Shown here piece after piece: positions 12,706-58,388 of a DNA stretch of 64,000 nt. A program made the position numbers and the translations under genes. The DNA lies in contig CAYQZX010000044.1 in NCBI GenBank assembly GCA_964422165.1, positions 8,105 to 72,104 on the forward strand. The letters run 5' to 3'. Every line of letters begins with the position of its first letter. Within the stretch, counting starts at the first letter, position 1. The notes beneath the pieces were generated by a model that was not told where the DNA came from, searched no databases, and was given only the letters and a program-made list of their open reading frames with translations. This DNA comes from an uncultured Eubacteriales bacterium (GTDB lineage Bacteria; Acidobacteriota; Aminicenantia; Aminicenantales; Saccharicenantaceae).

Positions 12706-12885
12706 ATTTTATTTTACCTTTCTCTGGATTGCCCTGGCAAATGATTTAGCTTAATGCTAATATCAGCCTTAAAAACGGGTCTTCCAAACTATCACCGACC
12801 TGATTTCCCGCCTTTAGTTTAGACGAAAACTACCGCAAATCTTCCAGTCTCTGGGTGTCAGGATATTTAAAAAATGAACCCGAGC

Positions 12886-12913
12886 TGGACAATTGGAATA
12901 TAGTGGTATATAA
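12886..12913 (+). promoter_or_regulatory. Putative sigma70-like promoter (TGGACA-N16-TATAAT) for the GntR-type regulator gene
   Basis: Both hexamers are close to consensus with 16-bp spacing. The -10 element lies about 42 bp upstream of the ATG at 12956. Confidence 0.3.
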
Positions 12914-12955
12914 TGGTCCATAACGGTATATATATAAAATATAGAGAGGTTTAAT

Positions 12956-13945
12956 ATGGATTTGAAATTATCAATTGATAAGAACAGTCCAGTTCCTGCT
13001 TACCGTCAGCTGGTCAAGCAAATTACCTCACTGATTAGTGAAGGGAAGCTTAAGCCCGGGGATAAGCTCCCCACCGAAAGGGAACTGGCCACGCTTCTAA
13101 AAATTGCCAGGGGTACGGTTAAGAAGGCTTACGAATTATTATCAAAAGATAGAATTATTGAAACTACTCAGGGCCGGGGCACTTTTGTTTCCTCAGTTCA
13201 AGACATTATCCCGACCGGCCGAAAAGAAAAAGCCCAGAAGCTGGTAGACAACCTGCTTGAAGAATTGAGAAAGATGAATTTTTCCTTCCAGGAAATCAGA
13301 GCCTTTATAGAACTTTCTATTATTCAGAAAGAAGAAAAACTGGAAAATTTTAATGTGGCGGTTATAGACTGCAACCCGGAAAGCTTAGCCATTTTTGAAA
13401 GGCAGTTAACCTTTTTGAAACATGTCCGGGTAGCCAGGTTTCTTCTGGATGAAGTGGTGGCTGACCCTGAAGCCCAAAAGCGGCTCAAACCCTTTGACCT
13501 GATTTTAACCACCAGTACCCACTACAGTGAGTTACTGGGCAAACTTCCAAACCTGCGAGATAGACTTATCCAGGTAGCTGTCTCACCGAGTCAGGAAACC
13601 ATCATTGAAATGGCCAGTCTCAGTCCGGTTCAGAGAATTGGTGTAATCTGTGAAAGTGAGAATTTTTTGAATAGGGTAGTCTCCAGGTTAAAAAATCTGG
13701 GTCTGGTAAAAGGAAGTGTTCCTTGTCTTTTTATGAAAGATGAAGATGAATTACCCGAATTTCTGGAAAAGGTGGATGTAGTTTTAGTTCCTCCCGGGTA
13801 TCAGCTGCAGAGGAAAAAAGCCAACCTATCAGCAGTTCAGGCATTTACTGAAAGAGGCGGGAAAATTATTGCCTTTGATTATCAGATTGAAAGAGGCTCG
13901 TTGCTTTACGTTGAAGAAAGGATCAGCCAGCTCCTGAACCCCTGA
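12956..13945 (+). CDS. GntR-family transcriptional regulator with a large C-terminal effector domain
   Basis: N-terminal winged HTH (PAYRQLVKQITSLISEGKLKPGDKLPTERELATLLKIARGTVKKAYELL). RBS AGAGAGG lies 7 nt upstream of the start. It sits immediately upstream of, and co-directional with, the glutamate mutase operon. Confidence 0.7.
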   Translation: MDLKLSIDKNSPVPAYRQLVKQITSLISEGKLKPGDKLPTERELATLLKIARGTVKKAYELLSKDRIIETTQGRGTFVSSVQDIIPTGRKEKAQKLVDNLLEELRKMNFSFQEIRAFIELSIIQKEEKLENFNVAVIDCNPESLAIFERQLTFLKHVRVARFLLDEVVADPEAQKRLKPFDLILTTSTHYSELLGKLPNLRDRLIQVAVSPSQETIIEMASLSPVQRIGVICESENFLNRVVSRLKNLGLVKGSVPCLFMKDEDELPEFLEKVDVVLVPPGYQLQRKKANLSAVQAFTERGGKIIAFDYQIERGSLLYVEERISQLLNP

Positions 13946-13981
13946 GACCGGGTAGAGTTGCTTACGGTCTCTTCAGCCTCA
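13944..13981 (+). promoter_or_regulatory. 7-bp inverted repeat GAGACCG-N24-CGGTCTC between the GntR gene and glmS (candidate operator or attenuator hairpin)
   Basis: Perfect 7-bp arms overlapping the GntR stop codon. No following T-run, so it is not a classical terminator. Confidence 0.3.
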
Positions 13982-14034: not shown

Positions 14035-14529
14035 ATGAAAGCCTGTGAAAGTAAAAATGAAAAACACACCATAATCCTGGGAGTAATTGGGTCTGATTGC
14101 CATTCGGTGGGGAATAAAATCCTGGAGCTTTTCTTCACCGCTGAAGGCTTCAAGGTGGTCAATCTCGGAGTAATGGTTTCCCAGCAGGAATTTGTAGATG
14201 CGGCGATTGAGACCAACGCCAAAGCTATCCTGGTCTCTTCACTATACGGGCATGGCGAGATTGACTGCCAGGGTTTTAGAGATTTGTGTCTGGAGAAAGG
14301 TCTTGACCCGATTGTTCTCTATGTTGGTGGCAATCTGGTTGTGGGAAAAACACCTTTTGCTGTGGTTGAAGAGAAGTTCAAGAAGATGGGCTTTGACCGG
14401 GTTTTTTCGCCTGATGTTGATCTTAAGAAGGTAGCTGAACTCTTGAGGCAGGATATTGAGGAAAAATTCGGGTCGGTCAGAAAGCCAGAGACGGCAGAAA
14501 AAAATCAGGAGAAAAAAAGTAACAAGTGA
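14035..14529 (+). CDS. glmS: Glutamate mutase sigma (B12-binding) subunit; methylaspartate mutase S chain
   Basis: TIILGVIGSDCHSVGNKIL...AILVSSLYGHGEIDCQGF...LYVGGNLVVGK...MGFDRVF is nearly collinear with clostridial MutS/GlmS, including the DxHxxG cobalamin-binding motif. The ORF track offers an ATG at 14011, but GAGG sits 8 nt before the ATG at 14035. Confidence 0.85.
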   Translation: MKACESKNEKHTIILGVIGSDCHSVGNKILELFFTAEGFKVVNLGVMVSQQEFVDAAIETNAKAILVSSLYGHGEIDCQGFRDLCLEKGLDPIVLYVGGNLVVGKTPFAVVEEKFKKMGFDRVFSPDVDLKKVAELLRQDIEEKFGSVRKPETAEKNQEKKSNK

Positions 14530-14548
14530 CCAGCTGAATATTTCAGCC

Positions 14549-15952
14549 ATGAAAACAATAATCAGCATTGATATCGGTTCCACCTGGACCAAAGGAGGTC
14601 TTTTTGTCCTCTCACCTTCAGGGCTGAAGCTTAAGAGCAAATATTCCACTCCTACAACTCAGAATAATCTGATTCAGGGTTTTAACGAAGTGCTTAAGGG
14701 CCTTACTGGCCAGGATATAAATGGTGCACTGGCCGGTCTCAATGATTCAACCGAAGTTTTCTTTTCTTCTTCGGCCAAGGGCGGTCTGAAAATTGCTGCC
14801 ATCGGGCTGGTTCCTGACCTGACTCTTCAATTAGCCAGACTGGCGGCCATGTCAGCCGGGGGCAAAGTAGTTGGGAGCTTTGCTTTTACTCTGACCAGGC
14901 AGGATGTAGAAGCCCTGGAGAGGCTTCAGCCGGATATCATTCTCTTCAGCGGGGGAACCGATGGTGGTAATACCCGCTATGTTCTGGATAATGCCCGGCG
15001 GCTGGCCAGTTCAGGTTTTAGCTGTCCGGTGGTCTATGCTGGCAACAGGGCAGTGGCCGATGAAGTAGTTGAAGTCCTGAAAAATAAAGAGGTCATCTTA
15101 ACCGAAAACCTGATGCCAGAGGTTGGTCAGGTAAACATTGAACCGGCCAGGGAGAAAATCAGAGAAATTTTCTTGAAAAGGATCGTTCAAGGCCGGGGAT
15201 TATCTGAACTGGTTGAAATTTTCGGCACTCAGCCCCGACCAACTCCTCTGGCTGTTTTCGAGTTGATACAGGCCATACCCAGGTTCAATCCAGACTGGTC
15301 TGACCTGGCGGCCATAGATATAGGGGGAGCTACCACGGATTTTTATTCCAACACCGAATCTTACCTGGAAACTGATTCGGTAATCTTAAAAGGGATTCGT
15401 GAACCAAGAGTAAAAAGGACAGTGGAAGGGGACTTAGGAATGCGAGTGTCAGCTTGTTCTTTGCTGGAAGCGGGAAAACCCTACCTTGAAGCTCGACTGA
15501 TAAGTCTGGGCCTGTCGCTGGAAGCGATGGAAAGATTTGTTGAAAAAATTTCTGTTGATAATGATTACCTACCAGAAACTGAAGAGGAAATCTGGCTGGA
15601 CCGGATTCTGGCAGAGACCTGCGTCTATTACTCTGCTCTGAGACATGCTGGCGGCTGGAGAGAAACATATACTCCCCAGGGCAAAGTTTACATTCAGACC
15701 GGAAAGGATTTAAGGGCAGTTAAGGCGGTGGTGGGAAGTGGCGGTTTTCTCTCGGCCGAAAATTCGGCTGAAGTATTGCGCTTGCCTCTGGAAAGACTTG
15801 CCTTTTATGGAGATGAGAGAAAGCTTTTGCCGGAAAAACCATCTTTCTTTCGGGATAAAGATTATCTTTTTCCTCTTCTGGGAAATCTGGTCGAAAAATA
15901 TCCTCAAGATGCGGCTATTCTGGCCGTGGCTTCACTTGAAAAATTAGGTTGA
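14549..15952 (+). CDS. glmL: Glutamate mutase-associated protein GlmL/MutL (ASKHA-fold chaperone/reactivase-like)
   Basis: N-terminal IISIDIGSTWTKG actin-like ATPase motif, a length of about 467 aa, and position between the S and E subunits as in clostridial glm operons. The track ORF extends upstream to 14456 and overlaps glmS; the ATG at 14549 just after the glmS stop is preferred. Confidence 0.7.
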   Translation: MKTIISIDIGSTWTKGGLFVLSPSGLKLKSKYSTPTTQNNLIQGFNEVLKGLTGQDINGALAGLNDSTEVFFSSSAKGGLKIAAIGLVPDLTLQLARLAAMSAGGKVVGSFAFTLTRQDVEALERLQPDIILFSGGTDGGNTRYVLDNARRLASSGFSCPVVYAGNRAVADEVVEVLKNKEVILTENLMPEVGQVNIEPAREKIREIFLKRIVQGRGLSELVEIFGTQPRPTPLAVFELIQAIPRFNPDWSDLAAIDIGGATTDFYSNTESYLETDSVILKGIREPRVKRTVEGDLGMRVSACSLLEAGKPYLEARLISLGLSLEAMERFVEKISVDNDYLPETEEEIWLDRILAETCVYYSALRHAGGWRETYTPQGKVYIQTGKDLRAVKAVVGSGGFLSAENSAEVLRLPLERLAFYGDERKLLPEKPSFFRDKDYLFPLLGNLVEKYPQDAAILAVASLEKLG

Positions 15953-15964
15953 GAGGTATAAAGC

Positions 15965-17413
15965 ATGATAAGAAACGAGAAATTGGACTTAAAGGAATTT
16001 TTTGAGATAAGGAAAGAAGTTCTCCAGAGCTGGCCTACGGGTCAAAAAGTATCTCTTGATGAGGGAATTAAATACCATCATACCCTGCCTGAAGAAAAAC
16101 GATTTGTCCTGGCAATGAAGAAGGCCCGGGAAGGGCGTAAAACTCTGCTCCAGCCCAGAGCTGGGGTAGCTTTGATTGAGGAACATATCAAGCTTCTCCG
16201 CTACCTAGAAACAGAGGGACAGGCTGACCTGCTGCCTACTACCATAGATGCCTATACCAGGCAGAATCGGTATGAAGAGGCGGAAAAAGGAATAGAAAAA
16301 TCAAAACAGGCAGGCACCTCGCTGTTGAATGGTTTTCCGGCAGTTAATTACGGGGTAGAAGGCTGCCGTCGGGTGGTAGAAAACCTCAGCCGTCCGCTGC
16401 AGGTACGCCACGGGACCCCTGACGCCCGGCTACTGGCAGAAGTAACCCTGGCGGCCGGGTTTACCAGTTTTGAAGGTGGCGGAATTTCCTACAACATACC
16501 TTATGCTAAAAGAGTCCCGGTGGAAAAATCTATCAGAGACTGGCAGTATGTGGACCGACTGGTGGGCCTTTATGAGGAAAATGGAGTGCAGATAAACCGT
16601 GAACCATTCGGACCCCTTACCGGAACTCTGGTGCCGCCCTGCATTTCTATTGCTGTGGGAATCATCGAAGGTCTTCTGGCCCTGAAACAGGGAGTAAAAT
16701 CTATTACCCTGGGTTACGGACAGGGAGGCAACATTATCCAGGATGTGGCGGCTATAAAGGCACTCCGGGAGCTGGCTGATGAATATTTCAGGCAGGAAGG
16801 GTTTGAAGATTTTGACCTGACCACAGTTTTTCATCAGTGGATGGGTGGATTTCCAGAAGATGAAGCCAAAGCCTTCGCGGTTATCGCCCTTGGAGCTATA
16901 GTGGCCAGATTTTCGGGGTCAGAAAAAGTTATTGTCAAATCTCCTCATGAAGCCATGGGCATTCCCACAAAAGAAGCTAATGCCCAGGGATTGAGAGCGA
17001 CCAGACAGGCTATCAGCCTGGTTGAAGACCAGGTTATATTTAAGCCCGAAGACCTCCAGGCAGAAGTTGATTTGATTAAAGAAGAAGTGCGCTGTTTGTT
17101 GAACGGAGTCTATCAGCTCGGGCAGGGAGATATAGCCGCAGGCACGGTGGCTGCTTTCCAGGCTGGTGTTCTGGACATACCTTTTGCTCCTTCCGTGTAT
17201 AACCACGGCAAAATAATCCCAATGCGGGATAATGAAGGTTTTATCAGGATTTTCAACAAAGGTAATCTGCCATTGACCGACGAGATTATTTCCTACCACC
17301 GCCAGAGGCTTCAGGAAAGAGCTAAAGCTGAGGGTCGGGTTATTTCCTTTGAAATGGTTACAGACGATATTTATGCCGTAAGCAAAGGCAAATTAGTAGG
17401 GAGGCCGAAGTGA
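15965..17413 (+). CDS. glmE: Glutamate mutase epsilon (catalytic) subunit; methylaspartate mutase E chain
   Basis: 482 aa whose N-terminus (DLKEFFEIRKEVLQSWPTGQKVSLDEGIKYH) resembles clostridial GlmE/MutE. TIM-barrel-like core with conserved glycine-rich blocks. Confidence 0.85.
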   Translation: MIRNEKLDLKEFFEIRKEVLQSWPTGQKVSLDEGIKYHHTLPEEKRFVLAMKKAREGRKTLLQPRAGVALIEEHIKLLRYLETEGQADLLPTTIDAYTRQNRYEEAEKGIEKSKQAGTSLLNGFPAVNYGVEGCRRVVENLSRPLQVRHGTPDARLLAEVTLAAGFTSFEGGGISYNIPYAKRVPVEKSIRDWQYVDRLVGLYEENGVQINREPFGPLTGTLVPPCISIAVGIIEGLLALKQGVKSITLGYGQGGNIIQDVAAIKALRELADEYFRQEGFEDFDLTTVFHQWMGGFPEDEAKAFAVIALGAIVARFSGSEKVIVKSPHEAMGIPTKEANAQGLRATRQAISLVEDQVIFKPEDLQAEVDLIKEEVRCLLNGVYQLGQGDIAAGTVAAFQAGVLDIPFAPSVYNHGKIIPMRDNEGFIRIFNKGNLPLTDEIISYHRQRLQERAKAEGRVISFEMVTDDIYAVSKGKLVGRPK

Positions 17414-18663
17414 AAATAAAAAGAGTGTTTTTCGTACCGGGTAAGTCAGCTTTCTTTTTTGACGACCAGAGAGCAATAAAGAAAGGAGCTAAGAGCGACG
17501 GTTTTGTTTATCAGGGCCGGCCTGTAACCAGGGGTTTTGAAAGTATCAGGATGGCTGGAGAGTGTATCTCTATCGTCCTGGAACTTGAAGACGGCCAGCA
17601 GGCAGTTGGGGATTGTGCAGCGGTTCAGTATTCCGGGGTGGGAGGCCGGGACCCGCTGTTTCTGGCAGCCCATTACTTGCCGTTTCTAAAACAGAATCTT
17701 CAACCACTGCTGGAAGGACTGGAAGTAGATTCCTTCAGGGGATTAGCAGAGAGATTTGAGCATCTGAAATTTGAAGGGAAAAGACTTCACACGGCCATCA
17801 GATACGGCCTGTCTCAGGCCTTGCTGGATGCCCGGGCCAGGGTCTCGAAAAAATTGAAATGTGAGGTCATTGCGGAAGAATATAATCTGACGCTGGTTCC
17901 TGAAAGAGTTAAGGTCTTTGGACAATCCGGAGATGACCGATATACTAATGCCGACAAAATGATTTTAAAACAGGTGGATGCTCTTCCCCATGCTCTGATC
18001 AACAATATTGAGGATAAACTGGGCTGGCAAGGGGAGAAGCTGAGAGAATACATTCGCTGGTTGGTTGATAGAATCATCAAACTAAGACCGCGCCCTGATT
18101 ACCGGCCCGACCTGCACATAGATGTTTATGGCACTATAGGGCTGATTTTTGAAGGAAACCTCACCCGGGTTGCTGATTACCTGGCCTCGCTGGAAAAAGA
18201 GGCCGGGGAGTTTAACCTCTACATAGAAGGGCCGGTGGATATGGAGGAGAAATACAGGCAGCTGGAAGCCCTGGCGGAAATTACCAGAAAACTTCAAACT
18301 CTGGGTTCCCGGGTTAAAATTGTGGCTGATGAGCACTGCAACACGATTGAAGACATCAAGGAGTTTGCCGAGGCTAAAGCCTCCCATATGATTCAGATTA
18401 AGACCCCTGATCTGGGTGGCATCCAGAACGTAGTAGAAAGCAACCTTTACTGTAAAGCTCATGGAATAGAAGCTTATCAGGGCGGCACCTGCAACGAAAC
18501 AGACATTTCGGCTATTGCCTGTGTTCATGTGGCTATGGCCACCCGCCCCGACAGAATGCTGGCTAAACCAGGCATGGGTTTTGACGAAGGTTTTATGATT
18601 GTGAATAATGAGATGGAAAGGATAATTGAGCTTTTAAAGATTAAACAAGGGGAGAAGATTTAG
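17410..18663 (+). CDS. mal: Methylaspartate ammonia-lyase (beta-methylaspartase)
   Basis: Near full-length collinearity with Clostridium tetanomorphum MAL: FFDDQRAIKKGA, GDCAAVQYSGVGGRDPLFLA, RLHTAIRYG, SGDDRYTNADKMI, IQIKTPDLGG, GGTCNETD, AKPGMGFDEG. The start overlaps the glmE stop (ATGA). Confidence 0.9.
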   Translation: MKIKRVFFVPGKSAFFFDDQRAIKKGAKSDGFVYQGRPVTRGFESIRMAGECISIVLELEDGQQAVGDCAAVQYSGVGGRDPLFLAAHYLPFLKQNLQPLLEGLEVDSFRGLAERFEHLKFEGKRLHTAIRYGLSQALLDARARVSKKLKCEVIAEEYNLTLVPERVKVFGQSGDDRYTNADKMILKQVDALPHALINNIEDKLGWQGEKLREYIRWLVDRIIKLRPRPDYRPDLHIDVYGTIGLIFEGNLTRVADYLASLEKEAGEFNLYIEGPVDMEEKYRQLEALAEITRKLQTLGSRVKIVADEHCNTIEDIKEFAEAKASHMIQIKTPDLGGIQNVVESNLYCKAHGIEAYQGGTCNETDISAIACVHVAMATRPDRMLAKPGMGFDEGFMIVNNEMERIIELLKIKQGEKI

Positions 18664-20043
18664 ATGAATAAATCGAAAGCCAGATCAAAGCTCGCTCCCT
18701 TTAAGATACTTTCAACCACGGCCATTCTGGGTTACGGTTTTCCAGAAAGCTCTTTTCAGAGAGGTTTGAGGAAAAAACCTGACCTGATTGCTGTTGATGG
18801 TGGTTCAACCGACCCAGGTCCCTACTATCTTGGGGCTGGCAAGTCATTTACCAGCAGAGCAGCAGTTAAAAGGGATTTAAGACTTATGATTAAAGCTGGA
18901 TTAGAGCATAATATCCCGGTTGTGGTGGGTACCGCCGGCGGCTCTGGAGCCAGACCTCATTTAGAATGGTGTTTGGAGATAGTGAGGGAGATTGCCCGGG
19001 AAGAAAATCTTCATTTCAAACTGGGGATTGCTTATGCCGATGTGGAAAAGGAAATGGTGCTGGAGGCGTTTAAACAGAAAAGAGTCAAACCGCTGGCTTT
19101 TGTTCCTGAACTTACCCCGGAAGTGGTGTTTGAGAGCGAGAATCTTGTAGCTCAGATGGGGATTGAACCTTTCATCAAATTACTTAATCAGGGATGCCAG
19201 GTGGTTATAGCCGGACGTTCCTATGACCCGGCAGTTTTTGCGGCTCTGCCCATCTCTCTGGGGTATGACCCTGGCCTGGCCCTGCACCTGGGCAAAATTC
19301 TGGAGTGTGCGGCCATTGCGGCCACTCCGGGTTCAGGCTCGGATTGTGCCCTCGGTATCCTGGAAGAGGATTCTTTTATCCTGGAAACTCTTTCGCCGGA
19401 ACGAAAATTCACACCGCAGTCAGCGGCTGCCCACACTCTTTATGAAAAATCAGACCCTTATGAACTGCCAGGGCCTGGTGGCCTGATCAACCTGAGAGGG
19501 TGCTCCTTTGAGGATATTGGCCAGGGGCGGGTTAGAGTTAGAGGAAGCCGATTTATACCGAGTGAAAATTACTGGGTTAAAATAGAAGGCGTTCGGATGA
19601 TTGGTTTCAGGTCCATAAGTATTGCTGGAGTGCGGGACCCGATCATGATAGAAAAGATAGATAAAATCCTGAAAGAGGTTGAACTGAAGGTCAGGGAAAT
19701 TATGGGTAAAGACGGGAAAAATGGCCAGATTTATTTTCATGTTTACGGAAAAAACGGAGTGATGGGCGAACTGGAGCCGGTAAAAAGAACCCTTTCTCAC
19801 GAGCTCGGGCTGGTTATTGAAACTATTGGAAAAACTCAGGAAGAGGCCGACAGCCTTCTGGCCCTGACTCGCTCAGCTCTTCTTCACTACGGTTATGAAG
19901 GCAGAATTGCCACTGCCGGCAACCTGGCCTTTCCTTTTTCGCCTTCTGATATTTCCATGGGAAAAGTCTATGAATTCTCTGTCTATCATCTGATGCAGGT
20001 TGACCGTCCGGACTTTTTCCTCAGCCGCGTAGAAGAATTGTGA
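18664..20043 (+). CDS. Uncharacterised protein, AtuA-like / DUF1446-like (assigned from memory of the family; needs an HMM check)
   Basis: 459 aa and soluble, with no catalytic motif I recognise. It starts 1 nt after the mal stop and overlaps the next small ORF by 4 nt. In many genomes AtuA/DUF1446 is paired with a small DUF4387 partner as seen here. Confidence 0.6.
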   Translation: MNKSKARSKLAPFKILSTTAILGYGFPESSFQRGLRKKPDLIAVDGGSTDPGPYYLGAGKSFTSRAAVKRDLRLMIKAGLEHNIPVVVGTAGGSGARPHLEWCLEIVREIAREENLHFKLGIAYADVEKEMVLEAFKQKRVKPLAFVPELTPEVVFESENLVAQMGIEPFIKLLNQGCQVVIAGRSYDPAVFAALPISLGYDPGLALHLGKILECAAIAATPGSGSDCALGILEEDSFILETLSPERKFTPQSAAAHTLYEKSDPYELPGPGGLINLRGCSFEDIGQGRVRVRGSRFIPSENYWVKIEGVRMIGFRSISIAGVRDPIMIEKIDKILKEVELKVREIMGKDGKNGQIYFHVYGKNGVMGELEPVKRTLSHELGLVIETIGKTQEEADSLLALTRSALLHYGYEGRIATAGNLAFPFSPSDISMGKVYEFSVYHLMQVDRPDFFLSRVEEL

Positions 20044-20054
20044 GGGGAAGAAAG

Positions 20055-20396
20055 ATGAGAGTAACAAAGCCAACAGCCGCAAAAAAGAAAAACAGCCTTT
20101 TGAAAGTGGCCCGGGTCATTCGTTCTAAAAATTCTGGACCTTTTGAGCTGACTCTTGATATTATGTTTAAGGAAAGGCGCTATTTCGAGCTATTCAAGAA
20201 GAAGAGGATAATAACTGCCAGAAAGATTGCCCGGCTCTATGGAATTCCCGAAAAAGAGGTTTTGAAGGTTGTCTACTTTGAACCAAGTCAGGCCATCAAG
20301 GTGACGTTGAAGAGAAGAATTCCCTCCGGTTCTCCTGGAGATACCGATGTATACGGAGCCCAGCAGCATGCGCCGCTACTTAGTTTGACTTTTTAG
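20055..20396 (+). CDS. Small basic protein, DUF4387-like partner of the preceding AtuA-like protein
   Basis: About 113 aa and Lys/Arg-rich. GAGGGG lies 7 nt before the ATG at 20055; the track start at 20040 is a GTG inside the stop of the upstream gene. Confidence 0.5.
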   Translation: MRVTKPTAAKKKNSLLKVARVIRSKNSGPFELTLDIMFKERRYFELFKKKRIITARKIARLYGIPEKEVLKVVYFEPSQAIKVTLKRRIPSGSPGDTDVYGAQQHAPLLSLTF

Positions 20397-20404
20397 GAGC
20401 TTAG

Positions 20405-21352
20405 ATGGACCCAAAACAGCTGTCCCGAGTGGATACTCTAATCTATGCCGTTTATTATGCACCACGGGGACGCTACCGGCTTTATATGGTAGCCAGCGAA
20501 ATTGCCAGGCGCTACCTCTCTCCTACCGATTATCTCATAGGAATAATAGGGGAAGAGGGTTCGGGTAAATCGACCTTGATTCGAGGTCTTTTCCCCGGGC
20601 TGGAACTTACCAATGAAGATGACGGGGTCAACCTCAGCCGGGCTCCGATTTATTCTTTTTCGCCAGAAGACTTTTTTTCCGGACACACTTTTCACCTTGA
20701 TGTCAGATATGAACTGGCCTTCAAGCAGAAATATAAAATTAAGGAGGCCATAAGAAAGGCAGTGGAACACAAACGTCGGGTGGTGGTGGAGCACTTTGAT
20801 TTGATTTATGACATCCTGGGAATGAATGCTCAGGTTCTGATAGGAATCGGGGAAGAGATAATTGTGGCCAGGCCGACGGTTTTTGGCCCCTTTCCCCAAA
20901 ACATAAAAGCCATAGTTGACCGGACGATTAAATACCGCTTGATGGCCCATTCAGCCGAAGACATCACCACTTACATTCTGGAAAGAGACTACAACTATAA
21001 ATCTCGTTCACCTCTGATTCATTCTGACATCCGCCACGGGTTTGTCATCAACTTTCCGGAAAGACCGGAGATTGACCTGGATGAACTTGAAGCCAAAGTC
21101 CAGGCCGTGATAGATGCCGATGTTCCCATCAGTCAGTGCGGAGAAGACACAATTTGCATAGGTGAGTTCAAGATATACTGCACCGGTCCACGGACTCATG
21201 TCAACCGCTCGGGAGAAATAGAAAATTTCCGTTTATTGAAAGAATTCAGGCTTAATCCCCTAACCAGCGAATTTATGCTCATAGGGATGGTCGGGCATAA
21301 AACCATTGCCGGCTTTGAAGATATCATTGAATATATGGACATTGAAGACTGA
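20405..21352 (+). CDS. P-loop NTPase/kinase-like protein of unknown function
   Basis: 315 aa with Walker A GIIGEEGSGKSTL and a putative Walker B RRVVVEHFD. It starts 9 nt after the previous gene and is embedded in the operon. Confidence 0.6.
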   Translation: MDPKQLSRVDTLIYAVYYAPRGRYRLYMVASEIARRYLSPTDYLIGIIGEEGSGKSTLIRGLFPGLELTNEDDGVNLSRAPIYSFSPEDFFSGHTFHLDVRYELAFKQKYKIKEAIRKAVEHKRRVVVEHFDLIYDILGMNAQVLIGIGEEIIVARPTVFGPFPQNIKAIVDRTIKYRLMAHSAEDITTYILERDYNYKSRSPLIHSDIRHGFVINFPERPEIDLDELEAKVQAVIDADVPISQCGEDTICIGEFKIYCTGPRTHVNRSGEIENFRLLKEFRLNPLTSEFMLIGMVGHKTIAGFEDIIEYMDIED

Positions 21353-21379
21353 GATCTTTCCGGAGTTGGAGGCTAGCCG

Positions 21380-22978
21380 ATGAAGTTTGTCTATTCTCCA
21401 GTTTTGCCTCTGGAAAAAGACCGGACGAAATTTGAAAGATTAACCTCAGAGCTGGTCAGAGAAGTAAAATGTCGGGGCAAAAAGTTTCTGGAAGTAAAAC
21501 CCGAGGCGCTCCGCTTATTGGCCCGGGAAGCTTTTGCCCGGGTTAATTTTTATTTCCGCTCATCTCATCTGGAAAACCTGGCTTCTATCCTGGACGACCC
21601 AGAGGCTTCAGAGAACGATAAATTTGTGGCTGCTATGCTTTTGAAGAACGCTGTCATCTCAGCCGAGGGCTTGCTGCCGTTGTGTCAGGACACAGGAACG
21701 GCTAACATCATTGGTTACCGGGGAGAGCGGGTTCTGACCGGAGTAGAAGATGCCAGGTATCTAAGCCGGGGTGTTTTTGAAGCCTACACCCGTCTGAATC
21801 TCAGAGCTTCTCAGAATGTGCCGCTAAACATTCTGGATGAAAAAAATACCGGAAATAATTTACCGGCTCAGATTGAGATATTCAGCACCAGAGGCAGTGA
21901 GTATCATTTTTATTTCATAGCCAAGGGTGGAGGCTCGTCTAATAAGACGGCACTCTATCAGGAGAACAAATCGCTTCTTAAGGATGAGCAAACCCTGCTG
22001 GATTTTATCAGAGAAAAGATTAAAGCCATAGGAGTGGCCGCCTGTCCCCCTTACCGATTGGCTGTAGTTATCGGCGGTCTTTCACCAGAGATGAACCTGA
22101 AAACCGTTAAATTAGCTTCGGCCGGTTTTCTGGATAATCTGGTAACCAGACCGACCGGACTGCCTCACGGCTATCGGGACCTGGAATGGGAAAAAAGAGT
22201 TCTCCAGGTAGCGAGGGCGACTGGGTTGGGAGCTCAATTTGGCGGAGTGGCCCTGGCCCTGGAAGCCAGAGTCATAAGGTTGCCGCGCCACGGCGGTTCT
22301 CTACCGGTGGGAATTGGTCTGAGCTGCAATGCTGACCGGAACCTAAAAGCCGTAATTAACCGCCACGGAATTTTTGTCGAAAAGCTGGATATTAATCCGG
22401 TTCGGTTTCTAAGGAAAATAGAATCGCTGAAGATTGAGAAAGTTCCAGCGATAAACCTTGACCAGCCAATTGAATCTCTTGTGGCTGAACTCTCAAGACA
22501 TCCGGTTGGCACCAGGCTGAGCCTTTCGGGCACCTTGATTGTGGCCCGAGACCTGGCCCACCTCAGGCTGAAAAAGCTGCTGGAAAGGGGCGAACCATTG
22601 CCTGATTATTTCATAAATCATCCGGTTTATTATGCCGGTCCAGCCCGAACACCTCAAGGCTGGCCCACAGGTAGCTTTGGTCCAACTTCAGCTCAGAGAA
22701 TGGATAGTTATGTGGAAGATTTTATGAAAGCCGGTGCTTCCCGGGTTATGCTGGGGAAAGGTAATCGCTCTGATAAAGTGGTAGAAGCCTGTCGGAAATA
22801 TCGAGGATTTTACCTTGGAACCATAGGTGGAGCTGCCGCTCTGGTGGCCAGAGAGCACATTGTTTCCTCTGAATTAGTTGATTTTGAAGACCTGGGTATG
22901 GAAGCTATCAGAAAGATTGTGGTGAAAGATTTACCGGCCTTTATCATAATTGATGATAAAGGAAACAGGCTATATTAA
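21380..22978 (+). CDS. Class I (Fe-S) fumarate hydratase, fused alpha/beta type; probable mesaconase of the methylaspartate pathway
   Basis: LCQDTGTA cluster-ligand motif, IAKGGGSSNK, and a C-terminal beta-domain with GPARTPQGWPTGSFGPTSAQRMD. 532 aa, as for FumA/FumB-type single-chain enzymes. Confidence 0.85.
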   Translation: MKFVYSPVLPLEKDRTKFERLTSELVREVKCRGKKFLEVKPEALRLLAREAFARVNFYFRSSHLENLASILDDPEASENDKFVAAMLLKNAVISAEGLLPLCQDTGTANIIGYRGERVLTGVEDARYLSRGVFEAYTRLNLRASQNVPLNILDEKNTGNNLPAQIEIFSTRGSEYHFYFIAKGGGSSNKTALYQENKSLLKDEQTLLDFIREKIKAIGVAACPPYRLAVVIGGLSPEMNLKTVKLASAGFLDNLVTRPTGLPHGYRDLEWEKRVLQVARATGLGAQFGGVALALEARVIRLPRHGGSLPVGIGLSCNADRNLKAVINRHGIFVEKLDINPVRFLRKIESLKIEKVPAINLDQPIESLVAELSRHPVGTRLSLSGTLIVARDLAHLRLKKLLERGEPLPDYFINHPVYYAGPARTPQGWPTGSFGPTSAQRMDSYVEDFMKAGASRVMLGKGNRSDKVVEACRKYRGFYLGTIGGAAALVAREHIVSSELVDFEDLGMEAIRKIVVKDLPAFIIIDDKGNRLY

Positions 22979-27413: not shown

Positions 27414-29834
27414 TTAAAAATTCAGCTTTTTATTGCGGACTGGATAGTTAACCAGAGCTTCTCCATCCCAGTATCTTATTATGTCTTTTAGACTTCTCAG
27501 TTCGGTCAAAGCATGTGGGGGCACAAGGCCTGAAATTACCAATTCTTTTGTCTTTTCGATAAGGGAATCGGCTGGTCTTGATAGCAAGGGGTTAAGGTTA
27601 AAGTCAAAGCTGTATTTCATTCCGCAGTCCATCTCGCTTGAATATTCTGAAGTTGTGACGTCTATAGTCCGGTCCTCCCGAGAGATTTCGACCAGGGTTA
27701 CATAATTTCGAATGCCCATGACCTTATTGATAGTAGTTCTGGGAAGCAGCAGGTAATACTCCTGCTTCCCAGGTGGCAAATCTTTGAACTGAAACTCGGG
27801 ATTACCACTTGACGGCGAACAACCGATTATGGCTCGCGGGTCAAGAACCAGAAGACAGGCTGATTGGAAATCGTTATTAGTCCCGGCCAGAATTATTTCT
27901 TTCCAGCCGTCCCCATCCAGGTCTTCTATGACCAGAGTATCCCGACCGAGGCGGCCGGCCTGCCAGTACTCTCCAAGAATTTCCCCGCGGCTGTTTAAGA
28001 GGGTTATCTGAGTAGGATACCAGGTAGTATGATTAGCTATTATCAGCACCTTTTTCTCAGGTGAATTCTGGTTGAAAGCGGCCACCTCAAACCTATTAAT
28101 AATGAAGTGATTGGAAAATTCATCGGTCAGGGTCTGGATTCTTTTTCCTGGTCTGAAGCTCCACTGAACCTCTCCTTTCTTGTTAAAGCAAAAGATTTCT
28201 GATCTCAATTTTTCATCACTTTTGTAGTTACCGCTAACCAGAATTTCTGGATTTCCATCTCCATCCAGGTCTTCAAATTTCTGTTGCAGACTTTCAGCTA
28301 CTATGGGTTTGGAGGGTCTGTATACCCAGAGAAGCTGCCTTTCCTGATTCCTGGCAAAAAGATTACCGTTATGTAATTCTAAAACTACTGGATGCCGTAT
28401 TTTCCAGAAATGATAAGAGGGGTTTCGGTTTATTAAAATAAAAGAGGAGATTACAAGTCCGGCTGCCAGCAAGCCCAGAAACCATTTTCTCATGGTGAAT
28501 TTCTTTTTTCTGAATAGGTAACGGGCATATGAATCTATTTTTTTTAAGGTGATTCGACTGTCATTAAGGACATCTTCCAGGGTTCTGGCGGGGATTAATT
28601 CCAGCTTTCTCCAGGGGTGTCTGGACAGCAGATTGAACAGAACGCCCCTGGCTTCTTTAAGATTGGATGCAGGAATTACCAGATACTTAATTCCTGAATA
28701 AAAGGCAGCCCTGATTTTCAGCCCCAGGCCCTCAGCTTCAATAGGTTTAATTTCTCCAGTAAGATCAATTTTCCCGGTGAAGGCTGCCTCTCTGGAAAAA
28801 CTGAGATGATAGCGGCTTTCGGCTGAAAGGAGCTTCTGGGCAATAGCTATAAGTGCCAGGGGGAGCCCCAGGCTTTCTCCGGAGTATCTGAAATTTTTTT
28901 CAGAAAAAGAAAAAATCAGGGTACAGGGAGGCAAAGTCAAACGGAAGTGTTTGTTTATAGAAAAGTCAGCGGCTTCCATGGCGTCAGTGGCACTGAGGTA
29001 AATTTCTTCCTTACTGAAAGCCGGAAGGTTGGAAAACCTGACCAGGTTCTGGCTCTCAACGGCAGTCGATTGACGGCAGCGACTTTCTAAAGAAATTATT
29101 CTGGCTCGTTCAGCGGATTTCAAAAGGCCAGAGCTTTCTACCAGGCTGCAGTAAATACTATCGTCACGCCAGCCCGAAAAGCTCTTCCATTTTTCCATAA
29201 CTAAATCAAGATCCTGGCCCAGTCCAGCAAACTTCTTGAGGTGGTCGAACAATACCTGGGCCATCAGTTCGTTACTCTGAGCATTCTGCCTTATTTCAGG
29301 GATCGCAGGTGTTAATTCTTTTTTAAGTTCTTTAAAATCCTCTTCACTGGAGAAGCTACTTGACTTATTATTTATTTTCTGTCTTGAAAGAAGAGCGGTC
29401 AGTCCTTCCTCCAGCTCTCCCAGGTATAGATGATTGAGGGCCAGATAGAAATAAAGATTATTCTGGGATTCCCTGAAAAGGTTTTCTTCCAGTTGTCCGA
29501 CAAACCTGGACTGCAGATATCGGGATGCGCTTAAATAAATCTTTAATTCTTCAGGTGGGCAGCAATCTGGCTGAAAATTGGCAGTTAGATACAGGAATAA
29601 TCCTGCCAGCTGAAGGTGGAATGAGTAAGTAAGATTTGCCGGCAGAGGCCTGGTTGATTCCAGAAATTCAGCTATTAACCAAACTTTCTCTCGATCATTA
29701 AGGGCTGAGGAAATGTTAGAGAGGGTCTGATTGAAAAGATTTTCCATATGCAGGGGAGAAATACTGCCTGGGCTGTGGTCTTGATTATTCATATAAATTG
29801 GCCTGAACCGGAATAACTTTTTCTGGCAGCTCAA
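27414..29834 (-). CDS. Membrane-anchored Lon-protease-domain (S16-like) protein with an extracytoplasmic FG-GAP/calcium-binding-repeat region
   Basis: The central region aligns to the Lon proteolytic domain, with the Ser-Lys dyad retained (SGESLGLPLALIAIA ... AFTGKIDLTGEIKPIEAEGLGLKIRAAFYSGIKYLVIP) and no Walker A/AAA+ module. One TM helix (WFLGLLAAGLVISSFILI) with positive-inside residues before it. The C-terminal part has DLDGDGNPEIL / DLDGDGWKEIIL FG-GAP-like motifs. The start is ambiguous: 29834, or the ATG at 29792 just downstream of the upstream gene stop. Confidence 0.7.
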   Translation of the reverse strand: MSCQKKLFRFRPIYMNNQDHSPGSISPLHMENLFNQTLSNISSALNDREKVWLIAEFLESTRPLPANLTYSFHLQLAGLFLYLTANFQPDCCPPEELKIYLSASRYLQSRFVGQLEENLFRESQNNLYFYLALNHLYLGELEEGLTALLSRQKINNKSSSFSSEEDFKELKKELTPAIPEIRQNAQSNELMAQVLFDHLKKFAGLGQDLDLVMEKWKSFSGWRDDSIYCSLVESSGLLKSAERARIISLESRCRQSTAVESQNLVRFSNLPAFSKEEIYLSATDAMEAADFSINKHFRLTLPPCTLIFSFSEKNFRYSGESLGLPLALIAIAQKLLSAESRYHLSFSREAAFTGKIDLTGEIKPIEAEGLGLKIRAAFYSGIKYLVIPASNLKEARGVLFNLLSRHPWRKLELIPARTLEDVLNDSRITLKKIDSYARYLFRKKKFTMRKWFLGLLAAGLVISSFILINRNPSYHFWKIRHPVVLELHNGNLFARNQERQLLWVYRPSKPIVAESLQQKFEDLDGDGNPEILVSGNYKSDEKLRSEIFCFNKKGEVQWSFRPGKRIQTLTDEFSNHFIINRFEVAAFNQNSPEKKVLIIANHTTWYPTQITLLNSRGEILGEYWQAGRLGRDTLVIEDLDGDGWKEIILAGTNNDFQSACLLVLDPRAIIGCSPSSGNPEFQFKDLPPGKQEYYLLLPRTTINKVMGIRNYVTLVEISREDRTIDVTTSEYSSEMDCGMKYSFDFNLNPLLSRPADSLIEKTKELVISGLVPPHALTELRSLKDIIRYWDGEALVNYPVRNKKLNF

Positions 29835-30480
29835 ACAGGGCCAGCTCCTTCGTTGGGACAGCTATTAGTTTCTCCTGATTACTGAGTATAAGAACTATTC
29901 TCTTCAGTTCAGACTCCACTTCGGGCTTTTCCACCTGGATTTTCAGGGTAAGAGGAGTTTGTTCTCGAAATAATTCCATCACAAGGCTTGAATTTTTCCA
30001 GTTTTCATTGGCGTAAGAAGGAAAAAGACGCCTGGCGCTGTTAAGAAAGGAAGGCATCTGAAATATAGCACAGGGTGGACAAACGGAAGCTTTAATAGGA
30101 TATAACTCCATGTCAATTCTATCCAGTCTGGCCTGCCCTTGACAATCGGTGAGAAATTCTTTCCAGGAGTGTTCGAAAGTTATAAAGGTGTATTGATACT
30201 TGTGAGACTCCTCGTGAAGCAGATAGGCCTGGTGTTCTCCCGACAGGGTGTTTTTAAGAATCCTCAGAAGGAATTTTCGGTCGGATGAGGCCAGAATAAT
30301 TTTTTCGGCGTAAAATTCAAATGGAGGTCTTCCTGTAAATCCGAGCAGGTAAGGAAAGGGAGAAGTCTGGGTGTGCCAGTAGAAGAGAGACACAGTCTCT
30401 TTAAATTCAGCCTTCTGACATAAAGAACAGCAAAAGTCCTTAGATTCGGATTTTTCTTTAGGCTTTCCCGCTTTGCTCAT
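29785..30480 (-). CDS. Hypothetical cytoplasmic protein with two CxxC pairs (possible zinc ribbon)
   Basis: 231 aa with CSLC near the N-terminus and CPPC later; no TM segment. It overlaps or abuts the downstream Lon-like gene, consistent with operon linkage. Confidence 0.55.
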   Translation of the reverse strand: MSKAGKPKEKSESKDFCCSLCQKAEFKETVSLFYWHTQTSPFPYLLGFTGRPPFEFYAEKIILASSDRKFLLRILKNTLSGEHQAYLLHEESHKYQYTFITFEHSWKEFLTDCQGQARLDRIDMELYPIKASVCPPCAIFQMPSFLNSARRLFPSYANENWKNSSLVMELFREQTPLTLKIQVEKPEVESELKRIVLILSNQEKLIAVPTKELALFELPEKVIPVQANLYE

Positions 30481-30491
30481 AATTCCCCTTT

Positions 30492-31604
30492 TTACGCCTC
30501 AGCCTGAAGTTTATTTTTGAAGAAATTTTTAGAGTTTTTTACCAGATATTCAAAGATTTTTCGCTTCTCTTTCCTGTAATCTTCAGATTGAAGATCTGGC
30601 TGATACTTTTTCAGGTAGTCCAGCAGGGGTTTTTCCTGTCCTCCGTCATACCAATCCAGAATCAGATCATTAAGGGCTTTCAAGTAGTTCTCTTTTTCCG
30701 AAACAGTCATTTTGTTTTTTCTGATGTATTTGTTAAGGAGCAAAGCATTTTTTTCCTGAAGTTCAGACTGCCATTTCTGAAAATTTTCGTAAAAGCTGAC
30801 TGACCAGTCAGTTTCCTGCTGTCCGACAAGGGGAAGAGACCGAAGTCCAGAAATTAGATAATTTTTCTGGGTTTCAACATAAAGATCAACCAGGATGGAA
30901 AGGGAGATTTCCAGAGCTATCTGCTTTTCTCGAAGAATTGCAGCCAGTCGTTTGAGAAACCGCGGAACCTGGAGACCACCCAGACAGCCGTTAAGGCAGA
31001 GGTATAAAAGATTACTGTATTCATTTTCGGCTGAACCCTCTGGCCTCTGGCTCAGGTCCCCATCAGGGCAAAAGCTGACCAGGGTTAAGTGGTTTTTTTT
31101 GTTGATTCTAAAGCCCGGATTTTTTTTCAAAGAGTAAAGGATTTCCTTTCGAATGCGGGCTCTTTCGGGCCGGATTTCACTACTCAGGTAATAAAAAGTC
31201 TGCTTCAGTCGTCGACTGAGGATTTTTTTTAGGTACCTCTGAAAATCCCTTTCCTCCGCAATCAGGAATTTTTCAGTTATTTTCCAGTTGAACAATTTTT
31301 CCAGCACCGGAAAACGCCCCTTGGAATCTCTGATAAATAGAGATGAGATGGTTATCAGGGCGATATCTCTTGGCTGATAGCTGGCCATCCTTAAGTAAGG
31401 TCCAACTTCTCTCTTGATGGTTGGCAAAAGCAACTCTACCAGAGCTATGATAAGTTCTTCAAGATCTTTTTCGCGGTAGTTGTTATTTATTAGGTAAAGA
31501 AATTTAATTAGAAGCTTCTTCTCGCCTGCCAAGCCTTCTTCCTCAATCTGGCCAGACTTTCCAGCGCTTCCATAATTAAACGCCAAATCCCACCCTTCTG
31601 TCAA
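30492..31604 (-). CDS. Hypothetical protein (first gene of a three-gene operon with the Lon-like protein)
   Basis: 370 aa, soluble and helical, with no recognisable motif. 11-nt gap to the next gene. Confidence 0.55.
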   Translation of the reverse strand: MTEGWDLAFNYGSAGKSGQIEEEGLAGEKKLLIKFLYLINNNYREKDLEELIIALVELLLPTIKREVGPYLRMASYQPRDIALITISSLFIRDSKGRFPVLEKLFNWKITEKFLIAEERDFQRYLKKILSRRLKQTFYYLSSEIRPERARIRKEILYSLKKNPGFRINKKNHLTLVSFCPDGDLSQRPEGSAENEYSNLLYLCLNGCLGGLQVPRFLKRLAAILREKQIALEISLSILVDLYVETQKNYLISGLRSLPLVGQQETDWSVSFYENFQKWQSELQEKNALLLNKYIRKNKMTVSEKENYLKALNDLILDWYDGGQEKPLLDYLKKYQPDLQSEDYRKEKRKIFEYLVKNSKNFFKNKLQAEA

Positions 31605-36737: not shown

Positions 36738-37916
36738 TTAATAAGCAGTAATAAGTCCCAAACCCAGCCGGAAGTGCTTTGGCCGATCACTCTTAAAGAC
36801 GTAGGTGCCTTCCACAGCTAAACGCATGTTTCTTCTCAGCAGATAACCATAGTGCAGGCCAGCTGAAGTATATTTTAGATCCGGTTGGTCTGAATCTACC
36901 CAGTTAAAGATAGCGGCCGCATACCAGCGGGAATCATCGGCCTGGGGAAGATAAATCAGCTCGGCAAAGCCGCCTCGGGTGGCGATTTTCTCGGGACTCA
37001 GTATGTAGAAATAGGGGTTTTTGTCTTTTCGCTCCACGTACTGAACATTGAGCTCCAGCTTGGGACTGCCCCAGGTAAAATCAGCTCCCAGCATCCACAG
37101 AGTGTTGATGGCTTCTGCCTGCTTTTCTTTGCCGGTATAGCCAAACGCCCCGACTCTTAAGTTTTTAAGAACATCCTGAGAGATTCGAAGCATAAAATTC
37201 TTGTACTTATCGGTGTCAAAAGAGCCGACTTCATCGGCCGGCAGCAGACCCAGGCCGTTTACTACTTCAAGCGCCAGGTCGGTACCAGTGGGCAGGCCGT
37301 AAGTGAGCATGATTCCCCGGTCGTAGGTCAGGTTAGCTCGAGCCTGACCGACCCGAACTTTATAAATCCGGTAATCCTCATAGGTTAATCGCAATTCTCT
37401 CTTAAAAAGAGGGTCTGAAACCTGAAACTGGCCTATGTAAACATCAAGGTCGGTCTTAAACAAATCATTCAGCATAATGAAAGCATCTTCCAGGCCAGCC
37501 ACTTCGCCCCTTTCGCTGAAGAAGAAATAGAGGTAGTAGGCGATATTCTTGGTCAGCTCACCACCAGATAGAAGCTTGATCACAAACGGGCTGGAGAAAT
37601 CCAGTCCTTTGCTCCCAGCGTTGTTGAAGTTTAGAAAGCCGTCAAAACGTATGGCTATGGGTATTTCTCTTAAAAGCGAAAGAAGATCATCTCCGGTGTC
37701 AATGTTATAACGCGGCGTTTCCTTATCTTTAATCACAAAGCCATTTCCGGCGAATTCTTCCCCATAGGCTTTTAGCTTGGGGAAGGGAGTATGACAGACT
37801 TTGCAGCTCATACTGTACTTGCGAGCAAAAGAGGGAATGGCCAGAGCTTCAGTTGTCAGGAAAGCCAGCAGGAATAAAGATAAAGTAACAATTTGATACT
37901 TTCTTCCCATCGTCAC
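36738..37916 (-). CDS. Cyc2-like fused monoheme cytochrome c / outer-membrane beta-barrel (porin-cytochrome) protein
   Basis: Signal peptide followed at once by a single CKVCH heme-binding motif, then about 340 aa of amphipathic beta-strand pattern ending in an aromatic residue (LGLITAY). This is the architecture of Cyc2-type outer-membrane cytochromes. GGAGGTG RBS. Confidence 0.6.
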   Translation of the reverse strand: MTMGRKYQIVTLSLFLLAFLTTEALAIPSFARKYSMSCKVCHTPFPKLKAYGEEFAGNGFVIKDKETPRYNIDTGDDLLSLLREIPIAIRFDGFLNFNNAGSKGLDFSSPFVIKLLSGGELTKNIAYYLYFFFSERGEVAGLEDAFIMLNDLFKTDLDVYIGQFQVSDPLFKRELRLTYEDYRIYKVRVGQARANLTYDRGIMLTYGLPTGTDLALEVVNGLGLLPADEVGSFDTDKYKNFMLRISQDVLKNLRVGAFGYTGKEKQAEAINTLWMLGADFTWGSPKLELNVQYVERKDKNPYFYILSPEKIATRGGFAELIYLPQADDSRWYAAAIFNWVDSDQPDLKYTSAGLHYGYLLRRNMRLAVEGTYVFKSDRPKHFRLGLGLITAY

Positions 37917-39318: not shown

Positions 39319-39605
39319 ATCCCTCCTATAATCTAACATTACCACAAATAATAAAGACAGGCAACAGGATAAAAAAAATTTAAGAGGACGACTCGCACTG
39401 GATGAATTCTGAGTTGACGAATTGCCGTCTTTTCGCCTTATTTTCTGAGAGTAGTTGTCTTCTTTTAAGTTTCCCGCCTGAAGCGATGAGAAAAAAGCGG
39501 GAGACAGACCTTGAGAAAAATAGGCTTTGATTTCCAGACCCAGTTGGTTTAAAAAAAGAGAGTAGTTTTATTGTCTAAAAATATTAATATCAAAGAGGAA
39601 TAAAA

Positions 39606-51965: not shown

Positions 51966-51985
51966 GTTTGGTTAAGGAGGAAAAA

Positions 51986-52975: not shown

Positions 52976-52992
52976 GGAAAAAACACCGCGTT

Positions 52993-53020
52993 TGCCGCAG
53001 GGCTCGTGCGGCTGGCCCCA
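52993..53020 (+). terminator. Possible weak intrinsic terminator after the TIM-barrel isomerase gene
   Basis: GCCGCA-GGGCTCG-TGCGGC hairpin 18 nt after the stop, followed by a weak T-containing tract (CCCCATTTAGACTTT). Confidence 0.25.
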
Positions 53021-58373: not shown

Positions 58374-58388
58374 TTTATTAAAAAATAA

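Follow-up and report, generated by a model that had tools for sequence, protein, structure and literature searches.

Among described gene clusters for glutamate degradation through 3-methylaspartate, one that closely resembles the locus analysed here is found in Enterobacteriaceae, where glm-mal genes are accompanied by an extra class I fumarase, FumD, and where the cluster is present in 26.5% of E. coli strains and in 90.6% of O157:H7 strains (Kronen and Berg 2015, PMC4682846). FumD of E. coli O157:H7 is a mesaconase/fumarase with a kcat/Km of 2e6 for mesaconate, a DUF1446 gene lies downstream of mal in the enterobacterial cluster and also in Dictyoglomus, and the fate of citramalate in the E. 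coli cluster was stated as unknown in 2015 (PMC4682846). Here, we analysed a 64,000-nucleotide stretch of contig CAYQZX010000044.1 from an uncultured Aminicenantes-type bacterium (the window; all coordinates refer to it), in which a GntR-family regulator gene is followed by eight genes for the same kind of pathway, including a predicted citramalate lyase of the CmlAB type. The clostridial cluster (C. tetanomorphum, C. tetani) performs the same chemistry and has the same glutamate mutase, GlmL and Mal proteins as the window, whereas Clostridia use a two-subunit MesAB and an acyl-carrier-protein-dependent CitDEF-type lyase with activation genes (citCXG) (PMC4682846) in place of the fused fumarase and CmlAB of the window. 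The haloarchaeal methylaspartate cycle differs in proceeding via mesaconyl-CoA, using a CoA-transferase, a hydratase and a beta-methylmalyl-CoA lyase (PMC4682846), whereas the window has a putative mesaconase and citramalate lyase. An initial reading of the DNA made from the sequence alone (the sequence-only reading) had taken the arrangement to be unusual outside Clostridium-like and haloarchaeal variants; this does not hold, given the same cluster in Enterobacteriaceae and the DUF1446 gene beside mal in Dictyoglomus.

Gene content and proposed pathway

We consider it highly probable that the region is a complete operon, self-contained and under GntR control, whose products carry out the methylaspartate (mesaconate) pathway from glutamate to pyruvate, acetate and ammonia. 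Genes are numbered from glmS, and the features are as follows:

12956..13945, + strand: gntR, GntR-family transcriptional regulator (PF00392 GntR, E 1.4e-17)
14035..14529, + strand: glmS (mutS), B12-binding sigma subunit of glutamate mutase (NF002612, TIGR01501, DxHxxG)
14549..15952, + strand: glmL (mutL), glutamate mutase accessory/reactivating protein (PF13941 MutL, E 8e-136)
15965..17413, + strand: glmE (mutE), catalytic epsilon subunit of glutamate mutase (TIGR01503)
17410..18663, + strand: mal, 3-methylaspartate ammonia-lyase (TIGR01502)
18664..20043, + strand: cmlA (gene 5), predicted large subunit of a non-canonical citramalate lyase, AtuA/DUF1446 family (PF07287, partial; 9ERQ/9EVF chain A)
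20055..20396, + strand: cmlB (gene 6), predicted small subunit of citramalate lyase, DUF4387 (PF14330; 9ERQ chain B)
20405..21352, + strand: gene 7, conserved 315-aa protein, TsaE-like P-loop ATPase domain fused to an AlaX/ThrRS-editing-like domain (sub-threshold Pfam matches)
21380..22978, + strand: gene 8, single-chain class I [4Fe-4S] fumarate hydratase, putative mesaconase acting on mesaconate to give (S)-citramalate (PF05681 and PF05683)

In the proposed route, GlmS and GlmE, dependent on adenosylcobalamin, would turn (S)-glutamate into (2S,3S)-3-methylaspartate, with GlmL as reactivase; Mal would remove ammonia to yield mesaconate and NH4+; the class I Fe-S fumarase would add water to mesaconate to yield (S)-citramalate; and CmlA/CmlB would split citramalate into pyruvate and acetate. 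For the first three of these steps, the proteins belong to the corresponding families and conserve the catalytic residues. The catabolic route from glutamate via methylaspartate and mesaconate to citramalate that the sequence-only reading had proposed for an Aminicenantes genome is supported by these families and by synteny.

Genes 5 and 6 are homologous to a solved citramalate lyase

The protein encoded by gene 5 matches chain A of PDB entries 9ERQ/9EVF over residues 12-448 (E 9.9e-180, 601 bits), and the gene 6 protein matches PF14330 (E 1e-38) as well as chain B of 9ERQ (E 1.5e-28). The depositors named the chains of these entries "Citramalate lyase, subunit A (cmlA)" and "subunit B (cmlB)", and the entries are entitled "Citramalate lyase - AMPPNP - citramalate complex" (9ERQ, released 2025-10-22) and "Citramalate lyase - ADP - pyruvate complex" (9EVF, released 2025-10-08). 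Gene 5 is ~56-61% identical to CmlA and gene 6 ~50% identical to CmlB (E. coli 042 orthologue). When expressed as cmlAB, Cml of Raoultella planticola, provided by the Berg laboratory, confers mesaconate-dependent growth on an E. coli acetyl-CoA auxotroph (bioRxiv 10.64898/2026.01.16.699985, January 2026); the phylum from which the R. planticola CmlAB comes is distant from that of the window organism. Based on the close homology to the solved enzyme and on synteny, we infer that genes 5 and 6 encode a CmlAB-type citramalate lyase that replaces the acyl-carrier-protein-dependent CitDEF-type lyase.

The sequence-only reading had stated that citDEF is absent from the 64 kb and that non-canonical genes hold the place of the lyase in the operon, and both statements are borne out: no open reading frame (ORF) of at least 230 aa in the window has a Pfam match to CitE/HpcH_HpaI, CitF or CitD, a six-frame tblastn search of the window with the CitE-like lyase and CoA ligase of a Pirellulales locus described below gave no match, and the place in question is that of genes 5 and 6. 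Two further statements of that reading must be revised: the one by which the operon is without any citramalate lyase entirely, and the one that counts three unknown genes in that genes 5 and 6 are homologues of CmlA and CmlB while gene 7 is indeed without a family. Among the best 120 of at least 7764 homologues of gene 5 (E <= 1e-20), every one that was named in its source is called "AtuA family", "DUF1446" or "hypothetical", and none is called citramalate lyase; beyond the 2015 remark (PMC4682846), we found no literature on the function of DUF1446 or DUF4387.

The ligands of both structures place ATP/ADP at or near the active site of CmlA. Because the solved CmlA binds AMPPNP together with citramalate and ADP together with pyruvate, the nucleotide would be expected to take part in cleavage or to control it. 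We suggest, with low confidence, that it could serve to activate the C4 carboxylate transiently as an acyl phosphate (an activation that the module of the Pirellulales locus would achieve via CoA) or have a regulatory role.

Glutamate mutase, methylaspartate ammonia-lyase and the class I fumarase

The three glutamate mutase proteins and Mal all pass NCBIfam equivalog cut-offs, in agreement with their initial naming. GlmS scores 215 bits with NF002612 (cut-off 110) and 199.5 bits with TIGR01501 (cut-off 135.8), and its base-off/His-on cobalamin motif, DxHxxG, is present as DCHSVG. GlmL scores 478.8 bits with NF040745 (cut-off 475) and 464 bits with TIGR01319 (cut-off 204). For the two proteins whose failure to match their families would have refuted the sequence-only reading, the scores are 769 bits with TIGR01503 for GlmE (cut-off 390) and 550 bits with TIGR01502 for Mal (cut-off 286). 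GlmE aligns end-to-end and gap-free with chain B of the C. cochlearium glutamate mutase 1CB7/1CCW (E 2e-199) and keeps the substrate-binding arginine claw of R66, R100 and R149 as well as E171 and Y181 (C. cochlearium numbering). Mal aligns gap-free with the methylaspartases 1KKO/1KCZ of Citrobacter and C. tetanomorphum (E 2e-176), and its residues Q73, Q172, H194, D238, E273, D307, Q329, K331, T360, C361 and L384 are identical to those of 1KKO; K331 and H194 are the catalytic bases and D238, E273 and D307 the Mg ligands.

Gene 8 contains both domains of a class I fumarase in one chain (Fumerase PF05681, 226 bits; Fumerase_C PF05683, 237 bits), with the three Cys of the [4Fe-4S] site, Cys102, Cys222 and Cys316, in the contexts CQDTG, ACPPY and SCNADR that it shares with the fumarase of the E. 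coli cluster. An alignment of 533 residues with that fumarase, which is of class I and holds the fumD position, shows 50% identity. The initial description of gene 8 as a class I Fe-S fumarate hydratase is therefore upheld by the presence of both class I domains, with neither a serine nor a tartrate dehydratase in its stead, whereas the assignment to the clostridial mesaconase type fails, the protein being of the single-chain FumA/FumD type and not a two-subunit MesAB.

Operon layout and control region

Eight co-directional ORFs on the + strand span 14011/14035-22978 in the ORF listing of the window, and their packing is as tight as the sequence-only reading had described, although the exact junctions differ. 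The two ATGA overlaps that it had reported are not present; the overlap found is GTGA, at the glmE/mal junction. The genes mal and cmlA abut directly (TAG-ATG), cmlA and cmlB are separated by 11 nt if cmlB starts at ATG 20055 or overlap by 4 nt (GTGA) if it starts at GTG 20040, and the remaining intergenic gaps in the operon are 8-27 nt, where all had been given as 26 nt or less. For cmlB, ATG 20055, which follows a GAGGGG Shine-Dalgarno sequence, is the more likely start than GTG 20040, which overlaps the cmlA stop; gene callers on identical metagenome contigs also begin cmlB at ATG 20055. For glmS, ATG 14035 is the likelier start over TTG 14011, from which the ORF is already open. The glmL ORF is open from 14456, and ATG 14549 lies 19 nt past the glmS stop.

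The product of gntR is probably the regulator of the operon and gntR the first gene of the cassette; a gntR homologue lies immediately 5' of glmS in most related loci, and the best sigma-70-like site, at 12886-12914, lies 5' of gntR. A perfect hairpin with 7-bp arms (GAGACCG...CGGTCTC) at 13944-13971 overlaps the gntR stop and reaches into the 89-nt gap before glmS, and an imperfect inverted repeat of 12 nt is found at 12780-12826, upstream of the promoter-like site; both are candidate operator or attenuator elements. No Rfam families, including the cobalamin riboswitch, and no tRNAs were found in the window, and its GC content gives no signal of a recent island.

Conservation of the cassette in other genomes

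In E. coli 042, the locus has the order glmS-glmL-glmE-mal-AtuA family-DUF4387-symporter-class I fumarase-cobO. The core genes of the window are in the same order, both clusters are without CitDEF, and the proteins are 62 (glmS), 44 (glmL), 63 (glmE), 62 (mal), 61 (cmlA), 50 (cmlB) and 50% (fumarase) identical. The E. coli cluster has a dicarboxylate/amino-acid symporter between cmlB and fumD, cobO after fumD and a divergent LysR regulator, whereas the window has gene 7 between cmlB and the fumarase and a co-directional GntR gene upstream, and the transporter and cobO are absent. A distant blastn search with the region of the window gave matches in 1123 of 5426 complete E. coli genomes (~21%).

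We also searched 83 related loci by tblastn with nine proteins of the window. The nine-gene cassette occurs in the same order in nearly all of 80 genome loci examined and in many phyla: gene 7 is immediately preceded by cmlA and cmlB in 70 of 75 loci, has glmS, glmE and mal on its upstream side in 54 of 57, and is immediately followed by a class I fumarase in 65 of 73. The loci come from metagenome-assembled genomes (MAGs) labelled Aminicenantes, Spirochaetes, Riflebacteria/Ozemobacteraceae, Planctomycetes/Pirellulales, Verrucomicrobia, Kiritimatiellae, Raymondbacteria and "Eubacteriales". The closest relatives of gene 7 (85-91% identity) are in Candidatus Aminicenantes and Candidatus Saccharicenans MAGs, and with these MAGs the flanks of the operon are also syntenic at ~71-73% nucleotide identity (ADH, CAAX protease, a FecR/DUF6600 gene and a rimM-trmD block). 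This synteny beyond the cluster confirms that the genome is of the Acidobacteria/Aminicenantes type, as had been read from marker genes. Because the flanks are syntenic there, we suggest that the cassette has been inherited within Aminicenantes; many other anaerobic phyla have it too, probably owing to horizontal transfer.

In one Pirellulales MAG (JAFGPV010000166.1; locus L063, L063:6250-9917), the cmlAB slot is taken by a CoA-ligase pair and an HpcH/HpaI CitE-like lyase. The ligase is succinyl/citryl-CoA-synthetase-like, with a beta chain containing ATP-grasp_2 and Citrate_bind and an alpha chain containing CoA_binding and Ligase_CoA. From these domains, we predict that the module first converts citramalate to the CoA ester and then cleaves it, which would be a CoA-dependent, ATP-consuming variant of the last step. 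This non-orthologous displacement lends independent support to citramalate cleavage as the function of the cmlAB slot.

Several loci depart from the common order. In three MAGs, from Spirochaetaceae (L031), Kiritimatiellae (L040) and Spirochaetota (L046), gene 7 comes straight after mal and cmlAB is missing, and in four spirochaete loci (L055, L062, L070 and L072) no fumarase follows gene 7, so that in these genomes the genes for the last steps must lie at another site or be of another kind. In L031, which is without both cmlAB and the fumarase, the downstream ORFs, possibly mis-called in a high-GC contig, gave no Pfam match. In an Aminicenantes MAG (CAWDTC010000014.1; L067:1-6338), gene 7 is 65% identical to that of the window while its neighbours glmE, mal, cmlA and glmL are 45, 47, 39 and 30% identical, respectively; this may be a paralogous cluster for another substrate or a low-quality assembly.

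Weighing the proposed pathway

Several points tell against the pathway as we propose it. The activities of the window proteins, and a role of the fumarase as mesaconase in vivo, are inferred from sequence. The gene 8 protein scores 623-639 bits on the FumA/FumB-type NCBIfam models, below their equivalog cut-offs of 1060-1105, and, judged by these scores, it is a class I fumarase that is not assignable to a named E. coli isoenzyme; its mesaconase role is deduced from context, and class I fumarases are generally promiscuous (FumA, FumB, FumD; PMC4682846). GlmL clears the NF040745 equivalog cut-off by just 4 bits. The lyase assignment draws on PDB entry titles and on one preprint in which the enzyme was used, and the 56-61% identity to the solved CmlA is short of near-identity. 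Genes for B12 supply, pyruvate oxidation and acetate kinase are absent from the window. Finally, Kronen and Berg searched without success for conditions that lead E. coli to express or use its cluster (PMC4682846), so that the physiological use of the cluster type as a fermentation pathway is putative.

If genes 5-7 were unrelated to the pathway or novel, the route would end at citramalate or go on in an unknown way. Such a reading would suit the lack of genes for CitDEF, a CitE-like lyase or a citramalyl-CoA lyase in the 64 kb, the names that the source-named homologues among the best 120 of gene 5 still bear, and the 2015 statement that it was unknown what becomes of citramalate in the homologous cluster of E. 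coli (PMC4682846). We nevertheless regard it as very improbable: genes 5 and 6 match both chains of a solved citramalate lyase with substrate and product bound, Cml is in functional use (bioRxiv 10.64898/2026.01.16.699985), and in L063 the slot has been taken over by a CoA-dependent lyase module. An AtuA-type function in acyclic terpene or branched-acid catabolism, with genes 5 and 6 merely lying beside glm-mal, is what the Pfam match to PF07287 AtuA and the NCBI name "acyclic terpene utilization AtuA family protein" would suggest, yet the AtuA model covers residues 70-218 only of gene 5, at 59 bits, whereas the solved CmlA is matched end to end at 601 bits. Moreover, a geranyl-CoA carboxylase, a citronellyl-CoA/acyl-CoA dehydrogenase and other atu-type genes were not found in the window, while the synteny with glm-mal-fumarase is strict across phyla, and we give this explanation hardly any credence.

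The direction and purpose of the pathway also need to be considered. Burkholderia also employs a class I fumarase/mesaconase and citramalate cleavage to utilise mesaconate (PMC4682846), and glutamate mutase and Mal of haloarchaea are reported to work in acetate assimilation (PMC5592240), so the cluster could be imagined to serve the use of C5-dicarboxylates (mesaconate, citramalate, methylsuccinate) or to run in reverse or anaplerotically, as in the haloarchaeal cycle. Against this, Pfam domains of mesaconate CoA-transferase, mesaconyl-CoA hydratase and beta-methylmalyl-CoA lyase, the CoA enzymes of the methylaspartate cycle, are absent from the ORFs of the window, the operon is without a dicarboxylate transporter, and the cassette couples glmSLE-mal to a hydratase and a lyase, which fits a linear route from glutamate to pyruvate. 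We consider a C5-dicarboxylate or reverse role improbable, and favour the complete glutamate-degrading operon described above.

Gene 7

Gene 7 is a pathway-linked accessory protein and the sole gene of the cassette left unexplained. No Pfam family is matched above threshold; its N-terminal half gives 19 bits with PF02367 TsaE (threshold 26.6; residues 42-138) and its C-terminal half 15.2 bits with PF07973 tRNA_SAD (threshold 24; residues 252-280). Invariant residues include a Walker A motif (G49-x-EG-x-GKST57), H94-TFH-x-D-x-R-x-E103 and E129-HFDL, and further R178-x-M-x-H182-xx-E-D186, H206-SD and C259-TG-x-R-x-H265-V. Where AlaX/ThrRS have HxxxH and CxxxH zinc motifs, gene 7 has HxxxD and CxxxxxH, which suggests a modified metal site. 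As far as we could find, a TsaE/AlaX-type fusion within a metabolic operon has not been described for either family.

The family has 2507 homologues, the best 120 of which are 62-91% identical to gene 7, even across phyla, and is carried by at least 228 species in a scan of GTDB species representatives. It is compact: clustering at 50% gives 268 representatives, which are mostly fragments, and there are no remote relatives. Divergent relatives (35-49% identity) occur as tandem pairs on two short ENA/Logan contigs (L089:2-1600 and L091:3-1144); the pair on L089 adjoins an HTH-cupin regulator, with no glm-mal context visible on that contig. Because gene 7 is retained next to mal in the loci without cmlAB (L031, L040 and L046), and in L063 too, it appears to be tied to the whole pathway or to its mutase/lyase half and not to CmlAB. 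The gene is missing from the cluster of E. coli 042, which carries cobO; a 314-aa hypothetical protein encoded upstream of glmS in E. coli 042 was considered as its counterpart and rejected (BLASTP E 0.9).

We tentatively put forward, as an idea that we ourselves think unlikely to be right in either of its versions, that gene 7 encodes an undescribed accessory factor of the methylaspartate pathway. In the specific version, the editing-like domain would hydrolyse an aminoacyl ester, for instance that of a tRNA mis-acylated with the pathway intermediate 3-methylaspartate, which resembles aspartate and glutamate and is expected to build up as glutamate is fermented, and the TsaE-like ATPase domain would drive or gate the hydrolysis. 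In the less specific version, gene 7 would be an ATP-dependent maintenance factor for glutamate mutase/B12, filling the place that cobO has in the enterobacterial cluster. If the former were true, gene 7 would act in the proofreading of translation and be encoded together with the very pathway from which the harmful amino acid arises.

Other features of the window

Outside the operon, the window contains a multihaem cytochrome-like NapC/NirT and cytochrome c554 family protein (37945-39345, - strand) and an 810-aa protein with cytochrome c7-like motifs (55239-57671, + strand), the latter followed at 57690-59543 by a membrane protein with a non-significant cytochrome b561-like match (E 0.17) and an ApbE flavin transferase. 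The cytochrome-like ORFs hint that, besides the fermentation encoded by the operon, the organism may be capable of respiration or extracellular electron transfer. Several GFO/IDH/MocA oxidoreductases, of which one carries a TAT signal, lie among xylose-isomerase-like TIM-barrel proteins at 39606-40931, 47014-47874 and 50793-54927, a mix that is typical of sugar or inositol-type catabolic loci. In the segment 43600-46400, where the GC content is 0.40 versus ~0.46, an AAA_14/DUF4143 ATPase is encoded together with small ORFs that have no matches; the segment could be a small insertion of a mobile or defence-related nature. Large ORFs without a Pfam match, of 806, 231, 370, 392, 667 and 362 aa, are found at 27414-31604 (- strand), 36738-37916 (- strand), 47984-49987 (- strand) and 62801-63889 (+ strand).

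Implications

The operon is of a known cluster type, present here in a phylum in which it has not previously been discussed; in the literature searched, no paper named both Aminicenantes and methylaspartate. Because those of the best 120 CmlA homologues that have a source name are listed as "AtuA family", "DUF1446" or "hypothetical", the route will be scored as incomplete when pathways are reconstructed automatically. On the reading that we favour, CmlAB would close the "orphan" end of the pathway noted for E. coli O157:H7 in 2015 in this lineage as well. Many groups of uncultured anaerobes have the cassette, among them Aminicenantes, Spirochaetota, Riflebacteria/Ozemobacteraceae, Planctomycetota and Verrucomicrobiota/Kiritimatiellae, and with its presence here, a fermentation of glutamate that depends on B12 would join the metabolic capacities predicted for Aminicenantes.

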